NCBI GenBank assembly: GCA_018241585.1 | Contig: JAFEDN010000480.1 | Span: 1 to 58,023 of the forward strand | Origin: Pseudomonadota bacterium | GTDB taxonomy: Bacteria > Pseudomonadota > Gammaproteobacteria > Coxiellales > Coxiellaceae | Direction: 5' to 3' | Length of the DNA stretch: 58,023 bases | In this document: one piece after another, positions 9,469-51,322 of the stretch | Layout of the letters: the number at the start of each line of letters is the position of its first letter | Numbering within the stretch: position 1 is the first letter of the stretch | Notes under the pieces: generated by a model | What the model saw: the letters and a program-made list of their open reading frames with translations, nothing else | Told to the model about the DNA's origin: nothing | Database searches by the model: none | Program-made: the position numbers and the translations under genes

Positions 9469-11057
9469 CCCGGATATTTCACCGTTAAATTAATTTTTCA
9501 GAAAAATTTTTGAGCAAGCAAAAAGAGAGCATTTCAGATAGAAAAGATTTATTTTTTGAACAAAGAGGCTGATTTTGGGCGCAATTCCCCCCCCCCCCAT
9601 TCTTTGCTTGTGCCGGGGACAGCACGCTATCGCTCTATCCTGCACATAATTTAGCGGCTAATTGCGAAAATAAATTTTGATATGGAAAGCTGCTCGAAAG
9701 CAGAAAACGAATACGACGCGTATTACGAATAATCACCGCGCCAATTTTAAATAATTTTAAACGTATCGTACCGCATTGTGCCTGTGATAATTCAGTTCCC
9801 AATAAACCAATACGGCGAATGGCTGAACTAAAATATAAGCAGCACTCGAAAGCAATAATCGAAATTGATTCGCCCACCAGTCATGGCAACGGGTTCTATC
9901 CGCAAATAAATCCCATTGTTGTTCTTTAATGCGATTTTCCATTTCACCCCGAGCACAATAAATCTCATCGTAAAGCCATTGGGCTTCACCAGAAAGATTA
10001 GTGACGATAAATCGAGGATTGGCTCCTTTTAGCGTATGTTCTGCTTTAACCACGATACGGCGAGCGGTTTTCCAGGTCTTAGCCGCATAATAAAATTCAG
10101 AAAATAAGCGCTGTTTTTCTTGTGTCATTTGATAATTTTGTTCAGCCTGTTTCTGTAAAGATTCTGCAGCTTCGAGTAGTCGTTCATTTTTAGCCATTCC
10201 AACGATATATCCCACCTCATGGTTATCGCACCACTGCAACATCTTCGGGCGACAAAATCCGCTATCACCTCGAAAAATAATGTTGACTGTCGGCCACACT
10301 TGCCGCAATCTTTTAACCAATAACGATAAAATCGCCCAGGCGTGCTTGGCCCCATCTTGATTACCGGGGCGTAAATAACTTACTAACAGGTGTTGACCAC
10401 AGAAAACATATAAGGGCAAAAAACAATATTTCTCATAATAACCGTGAAAAAATCGCTTTTCTTGATGGCCATGGACAGGATCATCTGTGGGATCAAAATC
10501 TAAAATTAATTCCTGCGGCGTTTCATCCAATGATTGGATAAACTGCTCGATAAAAACTCGATGGATATCCCAGGCTATTCGACGAGCGCTGCGATTTTCC
10601 AGTCGGCATAAAGTCGAAGGGCTTGCTAGAGCTTCAGCGCAGTTTACAGCCGTTTGGAAAGCGGGATCATGACGCAATCGATCATGATCATTCAGATCTT
10701 CGTAGCCTAGGGCAATACCATAAATTCTTTGCTTCAATAAAGCTAATTGTTCATGGATAATCAGTGAGGGTTCCCGGGGATCGGGTATGACATCACAGAG
10801 CTGTTGGGTCAATTTTAATTGCCGATCAATTTCTCTTAGCAGTAATACGCCACCATCACTGCTGACGTCGCCCCCTGAAAATTCAGCTTCAATTTGACGT
10901 CGATTTAATGATGGAAATTTAATGGGGTCTTCGGTACAATTTGTCACAGCGAAAGTCTCCTTTTTTCCCTTAATTATTCGTCTTTAACAAACTGAATTAT
11001 TAGGAAAATGTTAGGCTTTCGCTACTCCTTTTTCAATCCTATGATGAAATATCCGGG
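9469..11057 (-). mobile_element. IS1380-family insertion sequence (1589 bp)
   Basis: Perfect 13-bp terminal inverted repeats: CCCGGATATTTCA (9469..9481) and TGAAATATCCGGG (11045..11057). Flanked by a 4-bp direct repeat TTAT (9465..9468 and 11058..11061). Encodes an IS1380-like DDE transposase. Inserted inside a toxin ORF. Confidence 0.88.
9635..10947 (-). pseudogene. IS1380-family transposase, interrupted by a 1-nt frameshift near 9820..9826
   Basis: The ORF track splits it into 9757..10947 (396 aa) and 9635..9877 (80 aa). Family-typical motifs are FSGGDVSSDGGVLLLREIDRQL, YCARGEMENRIKEQ and WWANQFRLLLSSAAYIL. The sequence continues in another frame as AIRRIGLLGTELSQAQCGTIRLKLFKIGAVI. One base appears to be missing after the ...YILVQ codon. 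Confidence 0.8.
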
Positions 11058-11293
11058 TTATCGCTATTTAGCATGACGTAAAATATTCTTAATCCAACTC
11101 CGTGGCTGCTGATTTTTATTTCCCATAATTTATTGCGAATATGTCTAAATTCGACTAATAATGCCTCAAAACCTGAAATTTCAATGCCTCGAATACATTC
11201 GACTACCCTTGCTCTATCCTTTGGGGTCAAATCTCGCAAAAATTTTCCAACAGGATCAGCACCATTCATACTTTTATAAAAAACGACTTCCAT
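11039..11293 (-). pseudogene. 5' fragment of gp49/HigB-like toxin gene, truncated by the IS
   Basis: MEVVFYKSMNGADPVGKFLRDLTPKDRARVVECIRGIEISGFEALLVEFRHIRNKLWEIKISSHGVGLRIFYVMLNSD is the phage gp49-like/DUF891 pattern. It then reads into the IS inverted repeat (NPDISS*). Confidence 0.8.
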
Positions 11294-11442
11294 AAATATA
11301 TCCAAAAGAATATAAAAAATCAACACTATTTTTAGATACAATCATAAATGAAAAGAAAATTTTTTATCCTAGTAAAAATGCTGGTGCTAATATAAAATTC
11401 TTCGAAAAAAGTAATTTTCGTGACAAACCTTAAAGGAATACT

Positions 11443-13472: not shown

Positions 13473-13494
13473 CTTATGCAAGGTGGGGGTTGGT

Positions 13495-13722
13495 ATGCAA
13501 ACAACTAAAGTTTTTAAATCCGGTAATTCTCAAGCGGTGAGATTACCTAAGGAATTTCAAATTCACAGTGAGACTGTAGAAATTTTTAGGCGAAACGGAG
13601 ATATTATTATCCGCGAAATACCGAAAACATTAGAAAAAGCTTTTAATTTATTAACGCACTTTCCAGAAGATTTTTTTGCAGAAGGCAGGAAAGACCCATC
13701 TCCACAAGACAGAGATTTTTAA
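13495..13722 (+). CDS. vapB: VapB antitoxin (AbrB/SpoVT-type)
   Basis: MQTTKVFKSGNSQAVRLPKEF is the swapped-hairpin AbrB motif. Lies 3 nt upstream of the PIN gene. Confidence 0.8.
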   Translation: MQTTKVFKSGNSQAVRLPKEFQIHSETVEIFRRNGDIIIREIPKTLEKAFNLLTHFPEDFFAEGRKDPSPQDRDF

Positions 13723-13725
13723 TTT

Positions 13726-14139
13726 ATGTCGTTGCGTTATTTATTAGATACTAATATTTGCATTTATATAGCCAAGCAAAAACCGATGAGTGTTTTAAAT
13801 AAATTTAAGCAAATAGCGATCGGAGACATAGGAATGTCTGTTATTACTTACGGCGAGTTAGCTTATGGTGCTAAAAAAAGCCATCATCCCAAAAAAGCTT
13901 TAGAAGTGTTGGAAGACTTGGTCAGCTTAATTCCCTCTTTACCGCTGCCAATACAGGCAGCTAAATGTTACAGCGATATTCGCGGTGAATCAGAAAAGAG
14001 AGGCAAGCCTATAAGTAACAATGATCTTTGGATTGCCGCACATGCACTGACTTTGGATTTAACAATTGTCACTAATAATATGAAAGAATTTACCAGAATA
14101 GCTCATCTTAAATTAGAGAATTGGGTTAATGAAGAGTAA
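13726..14139 (+). CDS. vapC: VapC PIN-domain ribonuclease toxin
   Basis: LLDTNICIY (first acidic residue), about 137 aa, NNDLWIAAHAL, TNNMKEF. Classic VapC layout. Confidence 0.85.
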   Translation: MSLRYLLDTNICIYIAKQKPMSVLNKFKQIAIGDIGMSVITYGELAYGAKKSHHPKKALEVLEDLVSLIPSLPLPIQAAKCYSDIRGESEKRGKPISNNDLWIAAHALTLDLTIVTNNMKEFTRIAHLKLENWVNEE

Positions 14140-15990: not shown

Positions 15991-17883
15991 ATGAATAGGT
16001 CTCAAAACTCTGACTCATCCACCACCCAAACCACTTTATCGTCTAATTTTTTACAGGATAGTTCATTGCTCACTCACTTACCTGAGCAGCAACAGAGCGG
16101 GGATGACAAATTAGGCGATCATCCTTCCGGGGAATCCACCCCGAAAAAGGAACTGGTTTCAGTAAGCGCTTCCGGTGGGCAGATGACCCTAGATTTTTCT
16201 ATCCACTTTAAAGATTTAACCATCGGGAAGCTCTTGGGACAGGGCGGTTATGGCAAAGTCTATGCTGGTGAATGGCAGTTTAATACTGTTGCGATTAAAC
16301 AATATGCCGCTCAGGACTTCAGTGAACAGGCTCAAAATGAAATTCTCAAAGAAGCTAAGGTAATGGCTACTGCCAGCACGCAATCTGATTATTTAGTGCG
16401 ATTGCGAGGCATAGTATTAGAAAAGCCTTACTATTCGTTAGTGATGGAATATATGCCAGGCGGAGATTTATTTCATTTGCTTAAAAGCAGTCAAGAACTC
16501 ACCTGGACGATGCGCTATCGAATCAGTCTGGATATGACTATTGGTTTACACCATTTACATCAACGAAATATTCTGCATCGGGATTTAAAAAGTCTCAATG
16601 TGCTTTTGGATATGAACTTCCGCGCTAAATTAGCAGACTTTGGCCTATCCAGTCTAAAAACCAGTTCGGCCAGCACTACAGCAGGTGAGTTTAAAGGAAC
16701 GCTTTTATGGTCTGCCCCGGAACTGTTTAAGCGCGGGGCTAAAGCGACGGCAGCTTCCGATCTATATGCTTTAGCCATGGTGTTTTGGGAACTGATTACT
16801 CGAAAGATACCCTTTGCCGATGCACCTAGCCCATCAATTGCTATCGACTGGGTCAAATCGGGCGAACAAGAAAATATCCCGGAAGGCACGCCGGAACAAT
16901 ATAAAACAATTATATTGGATTGTTGGAATAAAACATCAGAAAAACGTCCCAGCGCATGGGTTGTGGCCAAACGATTAGATATGTTATTGCAGGGACAGCA
17001 TCAGAAACCTTCAATTCAATTCAGTAGTTCATCATCAGGGAGTAGTACTTCATCCTCCACCATCGAGGCTTTATTCGAAGGCAAATCGTTAGTTACCTTT
17101 TCAAACCCTTCGTCGCCTCCTGCTGTCATTTCTGAATCGCCACCCTCACCCAAGCCGGTGGATGATGAGAAGCACAACCAACCAATCCCTGCTTCAAAAA
17201 ATTCTCAAATTTTTATGCCTACACCAATAACCCACTCTACTAAAGTCAGTAAGGATCAATTAAAAGTACAAGATGCATTAGTAAAGGCCTGTGAATCAGG
17301 TGATTTAAAAGCAGTACAGGCTTTGTTTAAACCAACTTGGTTTAGGAAAATTATTGCTAAACCGGATATAGCAAATAATAAAGGTGTACATCCATTAGGC
17401 GCAGCTGTATGGGGTATGAATAAAGAAATAATAGAAGAATTAATTAAACAGGCAGCAGGCATTGCTCCTCTAACTTGGAAAGAATGTGAAGAGCATAACT
17501 ATAAACATTATAAAAATGTTTTTACGATTCAGTCATTTGAGCCAAAAGATTGGCAACAATGGCACGATTTAATTAAAAAGCTAGATCACTCTCCTTTTCT
17601 ACAATCTATTCATTTAAAAGAGCTTAAATATGCATGGACTCATATAGGTCAATTATCTGATGGTACTAAAGCTACTTGGAAAGGGCTGAAAATTATCATT
17701 AATAGACGTATAAAAAAAGATGATATAATCGGATTTACTGAAAGTGCTTGGATAGCCTTTAGAGAGACAAATCACCGATATGCCGCGCTTAAGTACCCTA
17801 TTTCACAACGTATACTGCAAGCAACTAATAAGTCGGCACAGGTGACATTAACCGGCTCTACCCCAGTTGCAGGGATATCCTAA
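15991..17883 (+). CDS. eukaryote-like Ser/Thr(/Tyr) protein kinase (TKL-like) with Ser-rich linker and C-terminal helical/ANK-like domain; candidate effector
   Basis: Full Hanks kinase motif set: GQGGYGKVYAG, VAIK, HRDLKSLNVLLD, DFGLS, SAPE, DLYALAMVFWEL. Followed by SSSSSGSSTSSS and a 260-aa tail containing KACESGDLKAVQALF...GVHPLGAAVWGMNKEIIEELIK. Confidence 0.85.
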   Translation: MNRSQNSDSSTTQTTLSSNFLQDSSLLTHLPEQQQSGDDKLGDHPSGESTPKKELVSVSASGGQMTLDFSIHFKDLTIGKLLGQGGYGKVYAGEWQFNTVAIKQYAAQDFSEQAQNEILKEAKVMATASTQSDYLVRLRGIVLEKPYYSLVMEYMPGGDLFHLLKSSQELTWTMRYRISLDMTIGLHHLHQRNILHRDLKSLNVLLDMNFRAKLADFGLSSLKTSSASTTAGEFKGTLLWSAPELFKRGAKATAASDLYALAMVFWELITRKIPFADAPSPSIAIDWVKSGEQENIPEGTPEQYKTIILDCWNKTSEKRPSAWVVAKRLDMLLQGQHQKPSIQFSSSSSGSSTSSSTIEALFEGKSLVTFSNPSSPPAVISESPPSPKPVDDEKHNQPIPASKNSQIFMPTPITHSTKVSKDQLKVQDALVKACESGDLKAVQALFKPTWFRKIIAKPDIANNKGVHPLGAAVWGMNKEIIEELIKQAAGIAPLTWKECEEHNYKHYKNVFTIQSFEPKDWQQWHDLIKKLDHSPFLQSIHLKELKYAWTHIGQLSDGTKATWKGLKIIINRRIKKDDIIGFTESAWIAFRETNHRYAALKYPISQRILQATNKSAQVTLTGSTPVAGIS

Positions 17884-25229: not shown

Positions 25230-26621
25230 ATGAAAAAAGAAAAAGGGCCAAACTATTTTATCTCGTATGCAAGCACAGCTAATCACAGTTTTATAATAAT
25301 AACCAAACAAGTGATCTCTCCTAAAAATCATCCACAGCCAAAAAACATAGTCATAGCCAGCTTTGGTCTTTATGGAGAACAGGATAGATATCTAACTTCC
25401 ATTCTCACGTGCGGTTTCCGGACAGAAAACGGACGTCTTAGATCAGATCATTTTGTTCTGAATCAAACACCAAAAATGCAAGAGCTCAATGAAATCGAAA
25501 TAGATGATAGGTATTTAGGTGTTAAGTCTTTTCAAGTAAGTCGGAAAACTGCTATTAGAATTTTAAATGAAGCAAAACAAGATGCAAAAATCAATGAACT
25601 TAAGAAACCTGTTATTAAAAAAAGCGATAGAAGATTGCCAACGCGATTGCGAACAGAGGTTGAAACCAAGGCAGAAGATATAACACATTTCTTTGATGAA
25701 GAAGAAAAAAACCACCACTTATGGTTTCGTAATGAATTAAATAAAAACCAAAGAGGCGGTCCTAATTTCAATGGCAGAGATTTTAACTGTAAAAAATATT
25801 CAATTTACATCTTGAGAAAAGCCGGCATTTATGATCCTGATATAGAAAAAGATCGATATCCAAACAGTGTTGCAAGTGGATTAAAATTAGGTCATTTTTC
25901 AGGTCATTGTTGGGAATCAAAGTTAAACGTTGTAACTAATCAAAAAAAAGTTTTAACTTTCCCCAGAAGCTACCTTAATATATTTAATTCTCATAAGGAT
26001 AATCCTATAGAGGGCGCTTTAGCTATCCTAAGAGATTATGCTGAAAATAGCCTTAAAAATAGCATATTTCATCCGAAAAGACATCATTGCTCAATCATCA
26101 GGGAGGCTATTATACATATTGAAAAAAACCGTGAACATTTTAAGGATATAATTAGTATTCTTGTTTATTTAAAAACTAAAGTTAATAAACATAAAGACGT
26201 GGTTGGTTCTTTATATAGAAGGTATGAATTCTTATTAGAAAAATCACGCCAGATTAATCCCGAGGCTATTCCAATTAAACAAGAAATCAAAGAAGTTAAG
26301 CATCTGCAAGCAGTTCTGCCTAGCACTGCTTCAAGAGAAAACATAGACGTAATATATATGGACACTAAACATGTGGGACAAAAGCCTGAAAAACCAGTGG
26401 AGAAAACTGAAAGCGCTGCTCCAGCGGTAAATACCGTAACTTCAAAAAACACTTATAGTCTTTTTAGTTTAAGAAACGCGGGCATAGTTGTAGGTGCTAT
26501 CGGTGGCGTGGCTTCTGGACTGCCTGCGGCAACAGTGCTTGGTTGTGCCGCAGTTGGGGGAATCCTCGGAGGTGTTACTCAAAAACTCGCAGAAAACTGT
26601 GGGATTACTAAAACTAAGTAA
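25230..26621 (+). CDS. low-GC orphan protein, Lys-rich, with C-terminal glycine-zipper membrane anchor; candidate effector
   Basis: 463-aa ORF. Hand count of one 60-nt line in this gene gives 21/60 G+C. C-terminus GIVVGAIGGVASGLPAATVLGCAAVGGILGG. N-terminal His (ANHSFIIIT) plus FNCKKYSIYILRKAGI resembles a permuted papain/PPPDE-LRAT arrangement (weak). Confidence 0.6.
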   Translation: MKKEKGPNYFISYASTANHSFIIITKQVISPKNHPQPKNIVIASFGLYGEQDRYLTSILTCGFRTENGRLRSDHFVLNQTPKMQELNEIEIDDRYLGVKSFQVSRKTAIRILNEAKQDAKINELKKPVIKKSDRRLPTRLRTEVETKAEDITHFFDEEEKNHHLWFRNELNKNQRGGPNFNGRDFNCKKYSIYILRKAGIYDPDIEKDRYPNSVASGLKLGHFSGHCWESKLNVVTNQKKVLTFPRSYLNIFNSHKDNPIEGALAILRDYAENSLKNSIFHPKRHHCSIIREAIIHIEKNREHFKDIISILVYLKTKVNKHKDVVGSLYRRYEFLLEKSRQINPEAIPIKQEIKEVKHLQAVLPSTASRENIDVIYMDTKHVGQKPEKPVEKTESAAPAVNTVTSKNTYSLFSLRNAGIVVGAIGGVASGLPAATVLGCAAVGGILGGVTQKLAENCGITKTK

Positions 26622-44464: not shown

Positions 44465-44877
44465 AGATCAAGTACTCCCAAAGTAAAGGCGCCAAAAGGA
44501 AATGGCAACAGTTGTTTCATGGTAATATGCTGATAAACTCCTGGTAAGGTACAGAGATGACAAATGCTGTCCGGAAGAGAAAATTCAAATAATCGTTGGC
44601 GGCACGCGCCACAAGGAAAACAGATTTCATTTCCTGAAGAAATAACCAATATTTCCGACCATCGCCTTTGTCCATCATTCACCAGCGCAGATAAAGCACA
44701 GGCTTCAGCACATAAACTTAACCCGTAAGAGGCGTTTTCAATATTACCACCGGTCACCAAAGAGCCATTTCCGGCTCTTAAACAGGCGCCCACTAAAAAC
44801 TTCGAATAAGGCGCATAAGCTTTTTCCATGGCCTCTTTAGCTGCAACTAATAACTCAAAAGGTGGACCTTTTTGCAA
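44461..44877 (-). CDS. cdd: cytidine deaminase
   Basis: Zinc motifs CAEACA and PCGACRQ. 138 aa (tetrameric type). Confidence 0.88.
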   Translation of the reverse strand: MQKGPPFELLVAAKEAMEKAYAPYSKFLVGACLRAGNGSLVTGGNIENASYGLSLCAEACALSALVNDGQRRWSEILVISSGNEICFPCGACRQRLFEFSLPDSICHLCTLPGVYQHITMKQLLPFPFGAFTLGVLDL

Positions 44878-45400
44878 TCGTTATTCTCCTGGCTTGCAAT
44901 CCCTCGTTGCCAACAGCAGGCAGAAATTTGACTTTTTCTCCTACTTGCAATTGATGAAACTTAACGTCCATCAAATGACTTAAATTAAAATAATACTCAT
45001 TTTTTTCTTGATCAACAATAAAACCATAACCTTCATCTTCCATCAAACGAGCTATCTCACCTAAAAGACGCTCCCCATGGTTTTTAGTATCTCCATAAAG
45101 GCGGCGCCGGTACTCATCTAACTGCTCTCTAAGGCTGTCGGTAGCCTGCTGGATAGCTAAATACAAATTCTCTTGAGGATGATGAGATGCGATTAGGTAC
45201 TTCCCTGGCACATTCATAAAAATCGTCACGTTATGCAATTTTCCTTGATGCTGATGTTTTTGGACCTGCTCGACAACCACCTGGCAGGAGGTTATCCGGT
45301 TATAAACATGGTCCAACTTATTGATTTTTTCTCTTATACGGTCTTCTACAGCAGCAGAATGATCAATATCACGGAAAGTAATTTTTAATGGCTGTTGCAT
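44855..45400 (-). CDS. HPF/RaiA-type ribosome-associated factor fused to a C-terminal cold-shock (CSD/S1-like) domain
   Basis: The N-terminal ~105 aa are HPF-like (KITFRDIDHSAAVEDRIREKINKLDHVYNRITSCQVVV). The C-terminus GYGFIVDQEKNEYYFNLSHL...GEKVKFLP..GNEGLQARRI is cold-shock-like. Confidence 0.72.
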   Translation of the reverse strand: MQQPLKITFRDIDHSAAVEDRIREKINKLDHVYNRITSCQVVVEQVQKHQHQGKLHNVTIFMNVPGKYLIASHHPQENLYLAIQQATDSLREQLDEYRRRLYGDTKNHGERLLGEIARLMEDEGYGFIVDQEKNEYYFNLSHLMDVKFHQLQVGEKVKFLPAVGNEGLQARRITIAKRSTF

Positions 45401-45459
45401 AATCTACTCCCCCTTTAAGAATAAATTTAGACTGCCTATACATAATTATAGACGGAATA

Positions 45460-45678
45460 TTAGCCTTCTACATCAGAGGGCGTTTCCTCAGGGTCTAGCT
45501 CAGATAGCTGGCTGGTATTATTAATGCGATGAAAAATTTCTTCACGGTGAACGGAAATATGGCGCGGGGCGTCTATTCCGATACGGACTTGATTGCCTCT
45601 GACTTCCAATACATGAAGCCGGACTTCACCATTACCAATAATCAGGCGTTCGCCTGTAGCACGTGTTAGAACAAGCAT
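45460..45678 (-). CDS. csrA: carbon storage regulator CsrA
   Basis: Trimmed to ATG 45678 (GGAGGA SD). [48 protein letters not shown]. Confidence 0.92.
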
Positions 45679-45819
45679 GTTATTTTCCTCCATTGAACGG
45701 TATATTTTTTTTTCCTGTTCAGCAAAGTTCATTATATCGTGTAGGAAATTATTTATCAACCAGGGTATCTTGCATAGATCTTTAAATTTTCTGCTATTTA
45801 TGATTACATTAAGCAATAT

Positions 45820-47190
45820 ATGAAAGATGATAAAATAAGGTTACTGCCTCTCACTGCCATAGTTACTGGGAATATGATGGGATCAGGGATTTTTATGTTA
45901 CCTGCTAACTTGGCGCAAATAGGCTCTATTAGTATATTAGGTTGGCTACTAACTGCCATTGGTTCTGTTTTACTCGCCTTGGTTTTTTCAGGGCTGGGTC
46001 TATTAGCTCCTAAACCTGGCGGGCCTTACGCTTATGTTAAAGACGGTTATGGTGACTATTTAGGGTTTCAAACCGTTTACGCCTACTGGCTAGCCGCTTG
46101 GATAGGTAACATTGCCATTGCTATTGTCAGCGTTGGCTATTTAAGTTATTTCTTTTCCTTTATGAACACCTCATGGATTAAATGCTTAGCCGCTATAGCT
46201 ATTATTTGGTTTTTTACGATTGCGAATTCCTTAGGCGCTAAGTTTGTAGGTAAAGTGCAGACTTTTACCACTGCAACGATGCTGATCCCAATATTAGGTT
46301 TTGCTTTATTCGGCTGGTTACGTTTTAATTCGGAAATTTTTAAAGGGGCCTTTAATGTCTCAGGTCAGAGTGATTGGTCAGCCCTCTCATCAGCCGCTTC
46401 CTTAACATTGTGGTCGTTTATCGGAGTGGAATCAGCCTCAGTAACCGCTGGAGAAATCGAAAATCCGCAACGAAATATTCCCTTAGCCACTTTGTTAGGG
46501 GTGATTTTGGCCGCTGGGGCCTATATATTAAGCACCATTGTTATTATGGGAATTGTTCCGAATGCCGATTTAGCGCATTCAGAATCTCCTTTTGCATTGG
46601 CTGCTGACTATATTTTCGGTCCTATTGGGGGAAAATTAGTCAGTATTTGCGCCATCATCGCTTGTCTTGGCAGCTTAGCGGGTTGGACTTTATTAGTCGG
46701 GCAATCGGCGAAAGCGGCTGCCGATGATAAGCTATTCCCCAAAATTTTCTCCAAGACTAACCAATACAAAGCTCCTTTCGCAGGATTGCTGTTAGTGGCA
46801 TGTTTAATGACTGTAATTTTATTGCTGACTGTAGCTCCTTCTTTGAGCAAACAGTTTGAAATAATCGGTTTAATTACCGTTTTTCTTTCTTTATTGCCCT
46901 ATTTATACTCCGCCGGATCAGCCATTATCATTGGTTACCGTATGGGACTTAAAAAAAGTCATTATACTTATTTTGCCATCATCTCGTTACTGGCTGTGAT
47001 TTACAGCATATGGACTATTTCCAGCATCGGTCAAGGGATTCTTTATTACGGTATCCTAACTTTATTATTGAGTATTCCTCTTTATATTGTTGTTTTATGG
47101 CACAGACAGCATGCCAACCTTCAAGGAAGAATTTGGACGCCAGAATCACCAGACAAGATGGATTCTGTATCTCCCAAGAACCCATATTAA
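45820..47190 (+). CDS. APA/APC-family basic amino acid antiporter (AdiC/PotE/ArcD-like); probable arginine:ornithine exchanger by context
   Basis: 456 aa, 12 TM. N-terminus [42 protein letters not shown] resembles AdiC/PotE. Next to arcABC. Confidence 0.8.
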
Positions 47191-47239
47191 ACTGATTTGT
47201 TCACTAGCTTAGAACATGAAAAATTTTTTATGATCCACA

Positions 47240-47267
47240 TTGAAAAGAAAAAAGAATAGAGTACAAT
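47240..47267 (+). promoter_or_regulatory. putative sigma70 promoter for tae4-tai4
   Basis: TTGAAA (47240..47245), 16-nt spacer, TACAAT (47262..47267), 34 nt upstream of ATG 47301. Confidence 0.3.
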
Positions 47268-47300
47268 AGCTTGAAAATTCATAAAATCAAGGAAGAAGTT

Positions 47301-47792
47301 ATGGTTAGACCATCCTTTATCACCGCATGGGCGGCCTTCGCGGCAGTTAAACTTCCAGTTAATCAAGTAGGCAAAAAAATGGGTGGAAATGTTCAAAAAC
47401 ATATTGAATTACCTACTGGTGGCTTTGAAAATGCTTGCCCTATTAGGATGAGCTATGTGTTAAATTCTACTGGATTTCTTATTCACAAAAGCGGTTTGTA
47501 TGTAACGGTTACCGGTGGTGATAATCGCCAATATATTTACCGTGTCGGCGATATGATCAATTACCTTAATATGGTATTTGGTAAACCAGACAAAGTAGTT
47601 AAATTTCCAAAAGCAGCAGATTTCGTTAATATGAAAGGAATTATTGCAGTTAAAGGTCATGGTTGGATCAATGCTAAAGGTCATGTAACGCTTTGGGACG
47701 GAAAAAAGTGTGCGGATAGTTGTCATTTTATGTATGACCCAGATAACGGTCCTTTCATTCCGGAGGTAGCTTCAATATGGGTTTTGCATTAA
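47301..47792 (+). CDS. tae4: Tae4-family peptidoglycan amidase (T6SS amidase effector 4-like; NlpC/P60-type Cys-His)
   Basis: Trimmed to ATG 47301 (AAGGAAGA SD). Near-collinear by memory with Salmonella/Enterobacter Tae4: MVRPSFITAWAAF, GGFENACPIRMSYVLNSTGF (catalytic Cys), YIYRVGDMINYL, GIIAVKGHGWINAKGHVTLWDG (catalytic His), DPDNGPFIPEV. No signal peptide. Confidence 0.85.
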   Translation: MVRPSFITAWAAFAAVKLPVNQVGKKMGGNVQKHIELPTGGFENACPIRMSYVLNSTGFLIHKSGLYVTVTGGDNRQYIYRVGDMINYLNMVFGKPDKVVKFPKAADFVNMKGIIAVKGHGWINAKGHVTLWDGKKCADSCHFMYDPDNGPFIPEVASIWVLH

Positions 47793-48181
47793 GGCACTTG
47801 AAAAATTTTTTAGTCATAATCAGCTTAACCTTTACGGTGGTTTTTGGTCTTGCCTATGCCGATTCGAAAGATAACTCCCAAAACATGATTGAAAAATATT
47901 CCCAAAAAACCCTTCTCAAAAATTGGGCCTTAAGTGTTTGCCTGGCTGAGATTTCTAAAGATGCCAGTGAAAGAGCTGACGCCAATGCGACAGCAAGTGC
48001 TTATCTTGAATTTGGCCATCAACCGATTGAAGCATATGATCAACTAAGAAATCTAACCATTCAATTCACTCGTCGTCAATACCGTGGTTCTATTAAATCT
48101 GATTTTAATACCATGAAATGCATTGATTTATCTCATAGTAAAGAACTTGACGATTTGGCTACGAAACTAACCCAAAAATAG
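47777..48181 (+). CDS. tai4: probable Tai4-type periplasmic immunity protein
   Basis: Overlaps the tae4 3' end by 16 nt. Signal peptide (LVIISLTFTVVFGLAYA). About 105-aa predicted helical mature part (NWALSVCLAEISKD...ANATASAYLEFG), as expected for Tai4. Confidence 0.6.
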   Translation: MGFALRHLKNFLVIISLTFTVVFGLAYADSKDNSQNMIEKYSQKTLLKNWALSVCLAEISKDASERADANATASAYLEFGHQPIEAYDQLRNLTIQFTRRQYRGSIKSDFNTMKCIDLSHSKELDDLATKLTQK

Positions 48182-48212
48182 CATGCACCATTCCCATCTA
48201 TACCGCGAACGA

Positions 48213-49109
48213 TTACAATACTTGTGTACCAGCTTTTCCTTGCAATATCCATTCTGCTTCTTCGAGGGCGCCAATATAAGCGGCTTTACCACTGGCTTTT
48301 ACAAAATTGATGGCCGCTTGAACTTTTGGGCCCATGGAGCCGGGTGGAAAGTTTTCCTTTTGTAATTCTTCAATGCTGATTTTTCTTATCGGCTGCGCTT
48401 GCGGAGTGTTCCAATTGCTCATCACGGCTTTAACATCTGTTAACATCAATAAACCATCCGCTGAAAGTTGCTCGGCCAACAATGCAGCCGACAAATCTTT
48501 ATCAATAACTGCTTCTATTCCATAGTAACAACCTCCCCTTTTCACCACCGGAATTCCACCTCCCCCGCAGCAAATCACCAAAAAATCAGAGTGTATTAGA
48601 AACTGGATCGCAGTTAGCTCTAAAATGTTTTTAGGTTCAGGTGAAGCCATTACTCTGCGAAAATTACTTCCATCTTGTTTAAACTGCCATTGAGGATGGA
48701 TAGCCGCTAACTGCAATGATTGCTCCTGAGTATAAACAGGACCTATAAATTTGGCCGGGTCGCGAAAGGCAGCATCTCGTGGGTCCACTTCCACTTGTGT
48801 CAGCAAAGTGGCTATTGGCTTTTTTGGTAATTGATTGCGCATTTCCTGTTCCAGCATATAGCCAATCATCCCCTCTGATTCAGCCCCTAAAATATCAAGG
48901 GAAAAATCATCGGTCTTTGCTGCAGCAGACTGAAGAGCCAATAAACCTACTTGAGGGCCGTTGCCGTGAGTTAACACGATAGAATGGCTTTGAGCTATTT
49001 TAGCCAAATGCCGCGAAGCTTGTTCAATATTTTTTTTCTGCATGGCGATGGTTAAGGGTTCGCCGCGCTTAAGAAGCGCATTTCCACCTAAAGCAACCAC
49101 TAAATTCAT
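48213..49109 (-). CDS. arcC: carbamate kinase
   Basis: [25 protein letters not shown]. Last gene of arcA-arcB-arcC. Confidence 0.92.
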
Positions 49110-50101
49110 AAAGTCGCTACTAAAACGGCTTTGATCGTGTGCAACCGATTTTCTGCTTGATCAAAAACGATAGAATGATCAGATTCAAATACTTCTTCAG
49201 TGACTTCCAAACCGTCCAAACCAAATTGCTGAAACATTTTTTCCCCAATTTGAGTTTCTCGATTATGATAAGCAGGCAGGCAATGCATAAACTTTACATA
49301 AGGATTTTGGGTCATTGCCAATACCTGTCGATTGACCTGGTATTTTTTTAGCAACTCAATCCGCTCCTTCCAAATAGATTCCGGCTCACCCATCGAAACC
49401 CATACATCGGTATATAGAAAATCGACATCTTGTACGGCTGTGGCAATGTCTTCAGTCAATAATAATTTTGCTTCCGTTTGTCCGGCAGTCTGCCGACAAC
49501 GTTCAATCAGTTCTTCCCTTGGACGACAGCTTAAAGGCGCCGCCATTCTAAAATCCATACCCATTTTAGCAGCGCCCACTAATAAAGAATTCCCCATGTT
49601 GAAATGGCCATCTCCCAAATAACAAATTTTGATATCTTTTAGGGGTTTTTGACAATGCTCCTGCATAGTTAATAAATCAGCAAGAATTTGTGTAGGATGA
49701 TATTCCGTGGTCAAACCATTCCAAATCGGAACTCCAGCATAGGCCGCAAATTGATCCACGTTTTTTTGATCAAATCCTCGATACTCAATACCATCGTACA
49801 TTCTACCAAGCACTCTAGCAGTGTCTTTCATACTCTCTTTAACACCGATTTGAGACCCTGTTGGGCCTATATATGTCACATTGGCTCCTTGATCATAAGC
49901 GGCCACTTCGAAAGCGCATCTGGTACGTGTAGAGGTTTTTTCAAAAATTAAAGCAATATTTTTTCCTTTTAAGCGCTGTTGTTCGGTCCCAGCGTATTTT
50001 GCTCTTTTCAAATCCCTGGCCAAATCTAGTAAATAGTTAATTTCTTGAGGTGAAAAATGTTCTAGCGTTAAAAAATTTCTATTCTTTAAATTGAAAGCCA
50101 T
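49106..50101 (-). CDS. arcB: ornithine carbamoyltransferase, catabolic type
   Basis: N-terminal ~110 aa are almost collinear with P. aeruginosa ArcB ([11 protein letters not shown]...[26 protein letters not shown]). HCLPA motif. Confidence 0.92.
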
Positions 50102-50110
50102 ACTTTCCTC

Positions 50111-51322
50111 TTAAGACCTTTCTATTGGACAACTCATACAACGCGCTCCTCCACGGCCTCTGCCTAATTCATACCCTGGAATGGTAATCACTTCTATCCC
50201 TTCTTTTCGCAATTTTGTATTGGTAAAAACGTTTCGTTCATATCCAATGACCACCCCTGGCGCAACGGCCAACACATTATTGCCATCATCCCACTGTTCA
50301 CGCTCGGCTTCGTACTTGTCACCTCCTGTGGTAATCAACCTGAGGTCCTTTACTTTTATTGCGCGAGCGATGGTAGAAAAGAGGTCTTTTTGCCTTTCAA
50401 CCATTATTTGGCCGGCATCGTTGATTATCAGTCTCCATGTGGCCGCTTTTTCTAAGATATTGGGATAAATACAGAAAGCATCTCGGTCCACCATCGTTAA
50501 CAGAGTATCTAAATGCATACATGAACGATGTTTTGGCAACTTCAAAGCAATAATTTGATTGATGCTATCCGTTGGTAAAATTTCTTTAGCGATCATTTCC
50601 ACGGCTTGCGGTGTAGTTCTTTCTCCCATACCAATTAGCACGGCGCCATTACCGATAATTAAAACATCCCCACCTTCAATCGTGGCTGAACCATAATCAC
50701 GTTCTGGTTCGCCGTAGCATATTTTTATTTTTGCTTGTTTGAACATAGGGTGAAATTTATAAATTGCCTTCATGTTTAAAGTTTCAGGTTGCCGAGCTTT
50801 TTTAGCCATCGGATTGATTGAAACGCCTCCATAAATCCAGCAAGAAGTGTCTCTAGTAAATAAATGATTGGGTAGAGGAGGCAGCAAAAACTCGTCATCT
50901 GCAAGGTAAGCAAATACAAAACTTTTAAATTCCTTAGGAATTTCCTTTTTATTGAGCCCGCCTAATAAATGAAGACAAAGTTTTGCCGGGGTTAATTCGT
51001 TTAAATACGCAGTTAATTCCGCCGCTAATGAACTGCCATATAAATATTCGTTAATATGATGTGCAATCACCCATTGCTTAGCTTCGGCATTAGCTAATAC
51101 TTCCTCTAAAAGTTCTTCTAATAAAAAAACCTGAACGTTTCGTTCTCTTAAAGTATCTGCAAAGATATCATGTTCGATTCTGGCTCTTTTAACCCAAAGG
51201 ACATCGTCAAACAATAATTTGTGACAATTAGAAGGTGTGAGTCTTTTTAAACTCAAATCTGGACGATGTAAAATCACTTTCTTTAGAACGCCAACCTCTG
51301 AACCTACGTAAAATTGCTGCAT
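50111..51322 (-). CDS. arcA: arginine deiminase
   Basis: 403 aa. FTRDTS, catalytic C-terminal GGARCMSCP. Confidence 0.92.

Follow-up and report, generated by a model that had tools for sequence, protein, structure and literature searches.

The closest described relatives of the system considered here are the Tae4-Tai4 pairs of Salmonella Typhimurium (STM0277/STM0278; structures 4J30 and 4HFF) and Enterobacter cloacae (4HFK), in which a peptidoglycan amidase delivered by a type VI secretion system (T6SS) is encoded together with its periplasmic immunity protein. In Salmonella Tae4, mutating any one of the residues C44, H126, D137, C135, and C139 abolishes periplasmic toxicity (PMC3695027), and the disulfide joining the cysteine pair of Tae4, which is required for toxicity, is formed by DsbA of the target cell (PMC5792426). 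Ssp1/Ssp2 and Rap1a/Rap2a of Serratia marcescens belong to the same Tae4/Tai4 superfamily and share the fold family and disulfide-dependent toxicity (PMC5792426), although these pairs are more distant and are encoded within a T6SS cluster. The window analyzed here is the whole of contig JAFEDN010000480.1, which is 58,023 bp in length, has a mean GC content of 41%, and represents perhaps about 2% of the genome of an uncultured bacterium. It carries a Tae4-Tai4 pair whose effector aligns over its full length with the Salmonella and Enterobacter proteins at approximately 60% identity and has the same catalytic triad and cysteine pair. The Tai4 proteins likewise share their disulfide cysteines, the inhibitory serine loop, and the Sec signal, and the gene order with overlapping open reading frames (ORFs) is the same. 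On the other hand, the enterobacterial pairs lie inside a T6SS cluster beside hcp, whereas the pair in the window stands alone in an arginine deiminase locus.

The tae4 gene (47301..47792, + strand) encodes an NlpC/P60-type peptidoglycan amidase effector of 163 amino acids, which begins with MVRPSF..AW and continues through NACPIRMSYVLN, KGHGWINAKGHVTLW, and DPDNGPFIPE. The longest ORF opens at a TTG codon at 47271, yet the homologues favor the ATG at 47301, and a Shine-Dalgarno-like AAGGAAG (47289..47295, + strand) can be read 5 nt ahead of this ATG. The protein matches Pfam PF14113 with 73.5 bits (E = 2e-20; family cut-off 27) and Salmonella Typhimurium Tae4 in the PDB (4J30_A/4HFF_A) with E = 8e-63 over residues 1-162, which is far beyond chance. 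Searches against NCBIfam matched neither Tae4 nor Tai4. The sequence-only reading had named both proteins and had proposed a comparison with the family profiles, and the matches to PF14113 and to PF16695 (Tai4), together with those to the PDB, bear this out, so that the identification as a Tae4-Tai4 pair is certain. In an alignment with 32 diverse homologues, the triad C46/H128/D139 and the pair C137/C141 are invariant and correspond to Salmonella C44/H126/D137 and C135/C139, respectively; the catalytic Cys and His picked out beforehand thus fall on the Salmonella catalytic residues. Tae4 has neither a signal peptide, as had also been noted, nor an added domain. It is collinear from residue 1 with the crystallized proteins and from the first to the last residue with T6SS-delivered members, its N-terminal RPSF..AW..F motif belongs to the folded domain, and its length is the mode of the family. 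The C-terminus is a conserved element of the Tae4 fold in the alignment, with no lineage-specific extension. The nearest database homologues are only 73-74% identical and come from Betaproteobacteria, and no identical copy of Tae4 or of the other window proteins was found in the databases.

The second gene, tai4 (47777..48181, + strand), lies directly downstream of the effector and encodes a periplasmic immunity protein of 134 amino acids that matches Pfam PF16695 with 57.7 bits (E = 1.8e-15; cut-off 27.1). Its PDB matches are the partner of Salmonella Tae4 (4HFF_B, E = 1.7e-27) and Serratia Rap2a (3ZIB, E = 2.3e-14). A Sec signal peptide of 28 amino acids (47777..47860, + strand), with cleavage after AYA, can be read from the translation: the N-terminus MGFALRHLKNFLVIISLTFTVVFGLAYA, which is followed by D, combines positive charge in its n-region with a hydrophobic core of 15 residues and an A-x-A motif, and the homologues carry equivalent N-termini. 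C55 and C115 are conserved in 100% of 87 other homologues and correspond to the C48-C108 disulfide of Salmonella Tai4, while E78, conserved in 99% of the same set, corresponds to E71, the Glu that contacts Tae4. S105, within the motif RGSIK, aligns with the inhibitory S98 in the d-e loop of the Salmonella protein (PMC3695027).

The two ORFs overlap by exactly 16 nt, and the overlap and the signal peptide described in the sequence-only reading are both evident from the ORFs and the translation. Of 150 loci of the family, 89 have the identical 16-nt overlap, which is therefore an ancestral coupling device rather than a local accident. The ribosome-binding site of tai4, a GGAGG motif (47762..47766, + strand), can be read within the 3' end of tae4. 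A promoter-like element, TTGAAA-16 nt-TACAAT (47240..47267, + strand), precedes the cassette. It had been proposed as the promoter of the pair, and it is indeed present with a match at 10 of 12 consensus positions and ranks second best in the region 45300..48600; however, such sites number 12 in this region compared to 10.1 expected from shuffled sequence, and without an excess over shuffles the element is only a plausible promoter. At the other end, just 31 nt (48182..48212) separate the stop codon of tai4 from that of the convergent arcC, with no terminator-like hairpin, and transcription of the cassette could continue antisense into arcC.

The pair appears functional on all criteria that can be read from its sequence, because the positions conserved in the family are kept almost perfectly in both proteins. 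Conservation of at least 90% among 148 other distinct family members defines 60 columns for Tae4, of which the window protein retains 59, and Tai4 retains all 12 such columns among its 87 homologues. This retention may be taken as a sign of purifying selection on both proteins. The sequence-only reading had allowed for a relic, and a relic or pseudogene is ruled out by the same 59/60 and 12/12 conserved positions.

The cassette is flanked on the left by an APC-family amino-acid permease (45820..47190, + strand; Pfam AA_permease_2, E = 8e-56), whose homologues carry the name arginine/agmatine antiporter in their source records, and on the right by the convergent arcC (48213..49109, - strand; Pfam AA_kinase), followed by arcB (49106..50101, - strand; Pfam OTCace) and arcA (50111..51322, - strand; Pfam ADI). 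The placement of the pair between an arginine antiporter-like gene and arcC, as first described, is borne out by these flanks. The stop codons of the permease gene and arcC are 1,022 bp apart, and the cassette fills this gap. A search with the flanking permease led to relatives, and in two of these (L076 and L082; 64% permease identity), the permease gene and arcC abut tail to tail with nothing between, which indicates that the 1-kb cassette is an insertion. Other relatives with the upstream synteny of the window (L077/L078 and L080/L081) come from four independent assemblies, and their contigs stop 45-190 bp past the permease stop codon; in a further relative (L176/L177), a TPR gene follows the permease gene. 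Since the relatives differ in this way, the junction 3' of the permease gene is variable. The contig ends and the TPR gene make the spot look variable or repeat-containing. The cassette ends themselves have no repeats beyond short matches at chance level, and there is no adjacent insertion sequence, integrase, or tRNA. The best explanation is that the cassette was acquired horizontally and placed at the 3'-3' junction of the permease gene and arcC. Farther upstream, and divergent from the permease gene, a CsrA paralogue lies beside a gene (44855..45400, - strand) for an S30AE ribosome hibernation factor fused to a C-terminal cold-shock domain, a fusion that is kept in L077 and L080.

The base composition of the cassette is that of its surroundings. 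The GC content is 38.6% for tae4 and 36.8% for tai4, and the GC content at third codon positions (GC3) is 0.29 and 0.31, respectively; these values fall inside the distribution of the genes of the window (z -0.8 to -1.5), and codon usage is within the host range. The closest Tae4 homologues, on the other hand, are genes of 44-63% GC. The host-like GC, GC3, and codon usage speak for a long residence of the cassette, or for a donor of low GC content, and against a mis-assembly. In most genomes of the loci L095-L174, tae4 has a GC content clearly below that of its surroundings (e.g., 52% versus 69% in L110 and 59% versus 70% in L100). The loci of the family suggest frequent horizontal movement of a small tae4 cassette without a recognizable mobility gene. 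A plasmid or phage vector is disfavored for the cassette, as plasmids seldom carry Tae4 (17 records, all with less than 60% identity, and among those listed mostly of chromosome or megaplasmid size) and the gene is essentially absent from phages, where the single match is an unannotated record of 1.4 kb.

The organism that carries the cassette is an uncultured Legionellales/Coxiellaceae-like bacterium that is probably associated with eukaryotes. The contig contains core chromosomal genes, including hemA-prfA-prmC, parE, lptD-surA-pdxA-ksgA, ftsYEX, and prs. The window ParE shares 83-86% identity with a group of unnamed proteins from metagenomes, and its best named matches (70-72% identity) are those of Coxiella burnetii and of Coxiellaceae/Legionellales metagenome-assembled genomes (MAGs). 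In addition to the ParE matches, the assignment and the probable association with eukaryotes are based on two proteins of eukaryote-like type, which had likewise been recognized from the sequence alone. One is a U-box plus ankyrin-repeat protein of E3-ligase type (2..1564, - strand), which is cut by the contig end, and the other is a protein of 630 amino acids (15991..17883, + strand) with a eukaryote-type TKL kinase domain, which has structural matches and whose best solved relatives include plant CTR1 and the human RIPK1/2 and MLK kinases. Proteins of the U-box/ankyrin kind are found among Legionella effectors, and the first kilobase of the window has a GC content of 53% compared to the window mean.

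Several other genes of the contig may be accessory. A DUF5617-containing protein (25230..26621, + strand) has the lowest GC3 in the window (0.256), has no solved relative, and may be a further accessory or effector-like gene. An insertion sequence with a DDE_Tnp_1_4 transposase (9757..10947) has a helix-turn-helix antitoxin-like gene (9043..9369) on one side and a Gp49/HigB-like gene (11039..11341) on the other, and a VapB/VapC pair (MazE-like plus PIN) is located at 13483..14139.

How the pair acts may be outlined from its homologues in Salmonella, Enterobacter, and Serratia. Tae4 would be made in the cytoplasm without a signal peptide and would most likely leave the cell as cargo carried by Hcp, through a T6SS whose genes lie elsewhere in the genome. 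In the periplasm of a rival Gram-negative cell, it would form the C137-C141 disulfide, and the C46/H128/D139 triad would then cleave the bond between gamma-D-Glu and meso-diaminopimelate (mDAP) in peptidoglycan. Tai4, translationally coupled to tae4 through the 16-nt overlap, would be exported by Sec and dimerize, and its S105-containing loop would plug the active site of Tae4, so that the producer and its kin are protected. We assign a probability of roughly 0.55 to delivery by a T6SS encoded elsewhere in the genome.

Several points weigh against this reading. The gamma-D-Glu-mDAP amidase activity and periplasmic toxicity of Tae4 are predicted from homology, as is the immunity function of Tai4, and residue 34 of Tae4 (47400..47402) is H where all 148 other members have N. 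The 58 kb of the window hold no T6SS gene, nor is there an hcp upstream of the cassette, according to Pfam scans covering every ORF of 110 amino acids or more and five further ones (the truncated end ORF and four gap ORFs), inspection of the remaining gap-ORF translations, and tblastn searches in which nine T6SS core proteins and two Hcp sequences served as queries. The absence recorded in the sequence-only reading is thus confirmed. Moreover, a T6SS is rare in Legionellales, and Tae4 with the two most conserved motifs of the family is absent from all Legionellales genomes among 185,579 species representatives. As no Legionellales species genome gave Tae4, there is no precedent for a Tae4-firing T6SS in this order.

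The earlier inference from the missing T6SS genes to another route of delivery or a relic, however, is not supported. The missing genes carry little weight because the window is a single 58-kb contig, because an orphan position is usual in this branch of the family (22 of 25 loci), and because the T6SS is patchy in Legionellales and occurs in some members. The second of these points comes from a survey of Tae4 loci, 75 of which were retrieved from the 185,579 species genomes and 80 from JGI metagenomes. Loci were counted only if they had at least 8 kb on each side, and T6SS core genes were sought within 8-10 kb with nine queries taken from the Enterobacter locus L055 and identified by Pfam. 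Among the 25 loci with a Tae4 at least 60% identical to the window protein, none lies in a T6SS cluster, three have only an hcp immediately upstream, 22 have none of the nine genes, and no locus shows any other arrangement. Among the 50 loci with a Tae4 of less than 60% identity, 24 lie in a T6SS cluster (all in Enterobacterales, where the pair sits inside such clusters), none has only hcp, 25 have none of the nine, and one has another arrangement. For genes beyond the nine, such as those for VgrG and PAAR, the analysis of related loci covered the four closest contexts, which were inspected by Pfam and hold housekeeping genes only. An isolated position among housekeeping genes is therefore the rule in the Tae4 branch nearest to the window protein.

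The closest relatives in this survey are orphan pairs of Burkholderiales and Rhodocyclales (e.g., Noviherbaspirillum MAG L001, Roseateles L002/L003, and Delftia L013), with 63-74% identity. Like the pair in the window, they have the 16-nt overlap and housekeeping neighbors, and all nine T6SS core genes that were tested are missing within 8-10 kb; they differ in host lineage and in base composition (45-70% GC compared to 41% for the window). Burkholderiales are commonly T6SS-positive. Orphan hcp-tae4-tai4 modules also exist (L004, L009, L010, L015, L106, L109, L112, and L175), in which the same pair lies away from the main T6SS cluster with its own hcp immediately upstream, whereas in the window only 110 nt separate the permease stop codon from tae4 and there is no hcp. 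Across 45 hcp-positive loci, hcp is mostly within a few hundred bases of tae4 and mostly upstream; in clusters of the Salmonella/Citrobacter type, it lies just downstream of tai4. This closeness of hcp to tae4 fits the known delivery of the effector as Hcp cargo.

The T6SS is rare and patchy in Legionellales, yet it is present. L. cherrii, L. dumoffii Tex-KL, and L. gormanii have been described as carrying T6SS clusters (PMC5348487), the system is also reported from restricted clades of Legionellaceae (10.1101/2024.10.21.619444), and a Legionellales amoeba symbiont reportedly has a partial T6SS (10.64898/2026.04.11.717937). A literature search combining Tae4 and Legionella turned up no Tae4 described from Legionella or related bacteria, and as far as the genome and literature searches reach, the pair in the window is the first Tae4-Tai4 in Legionellales.

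Alternatively, a host without a T6SS may keep the pair mainly for defense, with periplasmic Tai4 protecting it against Tae4 injected by T6SS-armed neighbors in a biofilm or a shared amoeba, while its own Tae4 would be an undelivered passenger, released at most on lysis. The 58 kb without a T6SS gene are consistent with this possibility, as is the lack of a T6SS in most Legionellales (PMC5348487). Soil and fresh-water metagenomes commonly contain bacteria with Tae4, and orphan immunity genes are known, such as those of the Salmonella Typhi immunity islet (PMC7400221). However, an undelivered Tae4 should decay, and yet 59 of 60 conserved positions, together with the triad and the disulfide pair, persist in this effector although its composition suggests a long residence. 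Moreover, known islands of acquired immunity usually hold immunity genes without intact effectors. A mainly defensive role is conceivable but rather unlikely.

Delivery of Tae4 by a route other than a T6SS, such as a type IVB secretion system of the Dot/Icm kind (T4BSS), outer-membrane vesicles, or regulated lysis, is more doubtful still, and in this case the enzyme would either be lethal to co-resident bacteria or cleave structures derived from peptidoglycan within the host. A Legionellales-like host whose eukaryote-like proteins are typical of Dot/Icm effector repertoires, and a pair that is intact and appears to be under selection, would accord with such a route. Yet the collinearity of Tae4 with T6SS-delivered members leaves no N- or C-terminal extension for another signal and no sign of a different secretion signal or added domain, and the disulfide pair implies an oxidizing bacterial periplasm as the site of action rather than the eukaryotic cytosol (PMC5792426). 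The literature search gave no Tae4 in this group, as noted above, and no dot/icm gene was found in the 58-kb window. It is improbable that a T6SS-less, Dot/Icm-bearing, amoeba-associated member of Legionellales deploys an active and selected Tae4 against co-resident bacteria by a T4BSS, vesicles, or lysis. Delivery without any T6SS is possible, although unsupported.

Domestication of the pair for remodeling or recycling of the cell wall of its own host would suit the core metabolic locus and the host-like composition, but this is very improbable, as Tae4 without a signal peptide has no access to its own periplasm, a dedicated high-affinity inhibitor is kept, and such a role is not known for any member of the family. 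Least probable of all is an assembly artefact in which the cassette of another organism was mis-joined into what is apparently one contig from an uncultured organism. The nearest homologues are betaproteobacterial, but host genes belonging to a single syntenic locus border the 1-kb cassette on either side, its GC, GC3, and codon usage resemble those of the host and differ from those of these homologues, and Tae4 is at most 73-74% identical to any database sequence.

Delivery by a T6SS encoded elsewhere in the genome is therefore the reading we favor, and on present evidence the locus holds a cargo pair of the ordinary orphan type, albeit in an unusual host. If the genome lacks a T6SS, the cassette would become a useful test case for the T6SS-independent use of such effectors. 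The locus also illustrates that a two-gene cassette of 1 kb can establish itself between convergent genes without a mobility gene of its own and take on the composition of its host. Although the Tae4-Tai4 system itself is known, its host range is extended here to an uncultured Legionellales/Coxiellaceae-like lineage, which hints that some members of the mostly intracellular order Legionellales wage contact-dependent warfare on other bacteria.

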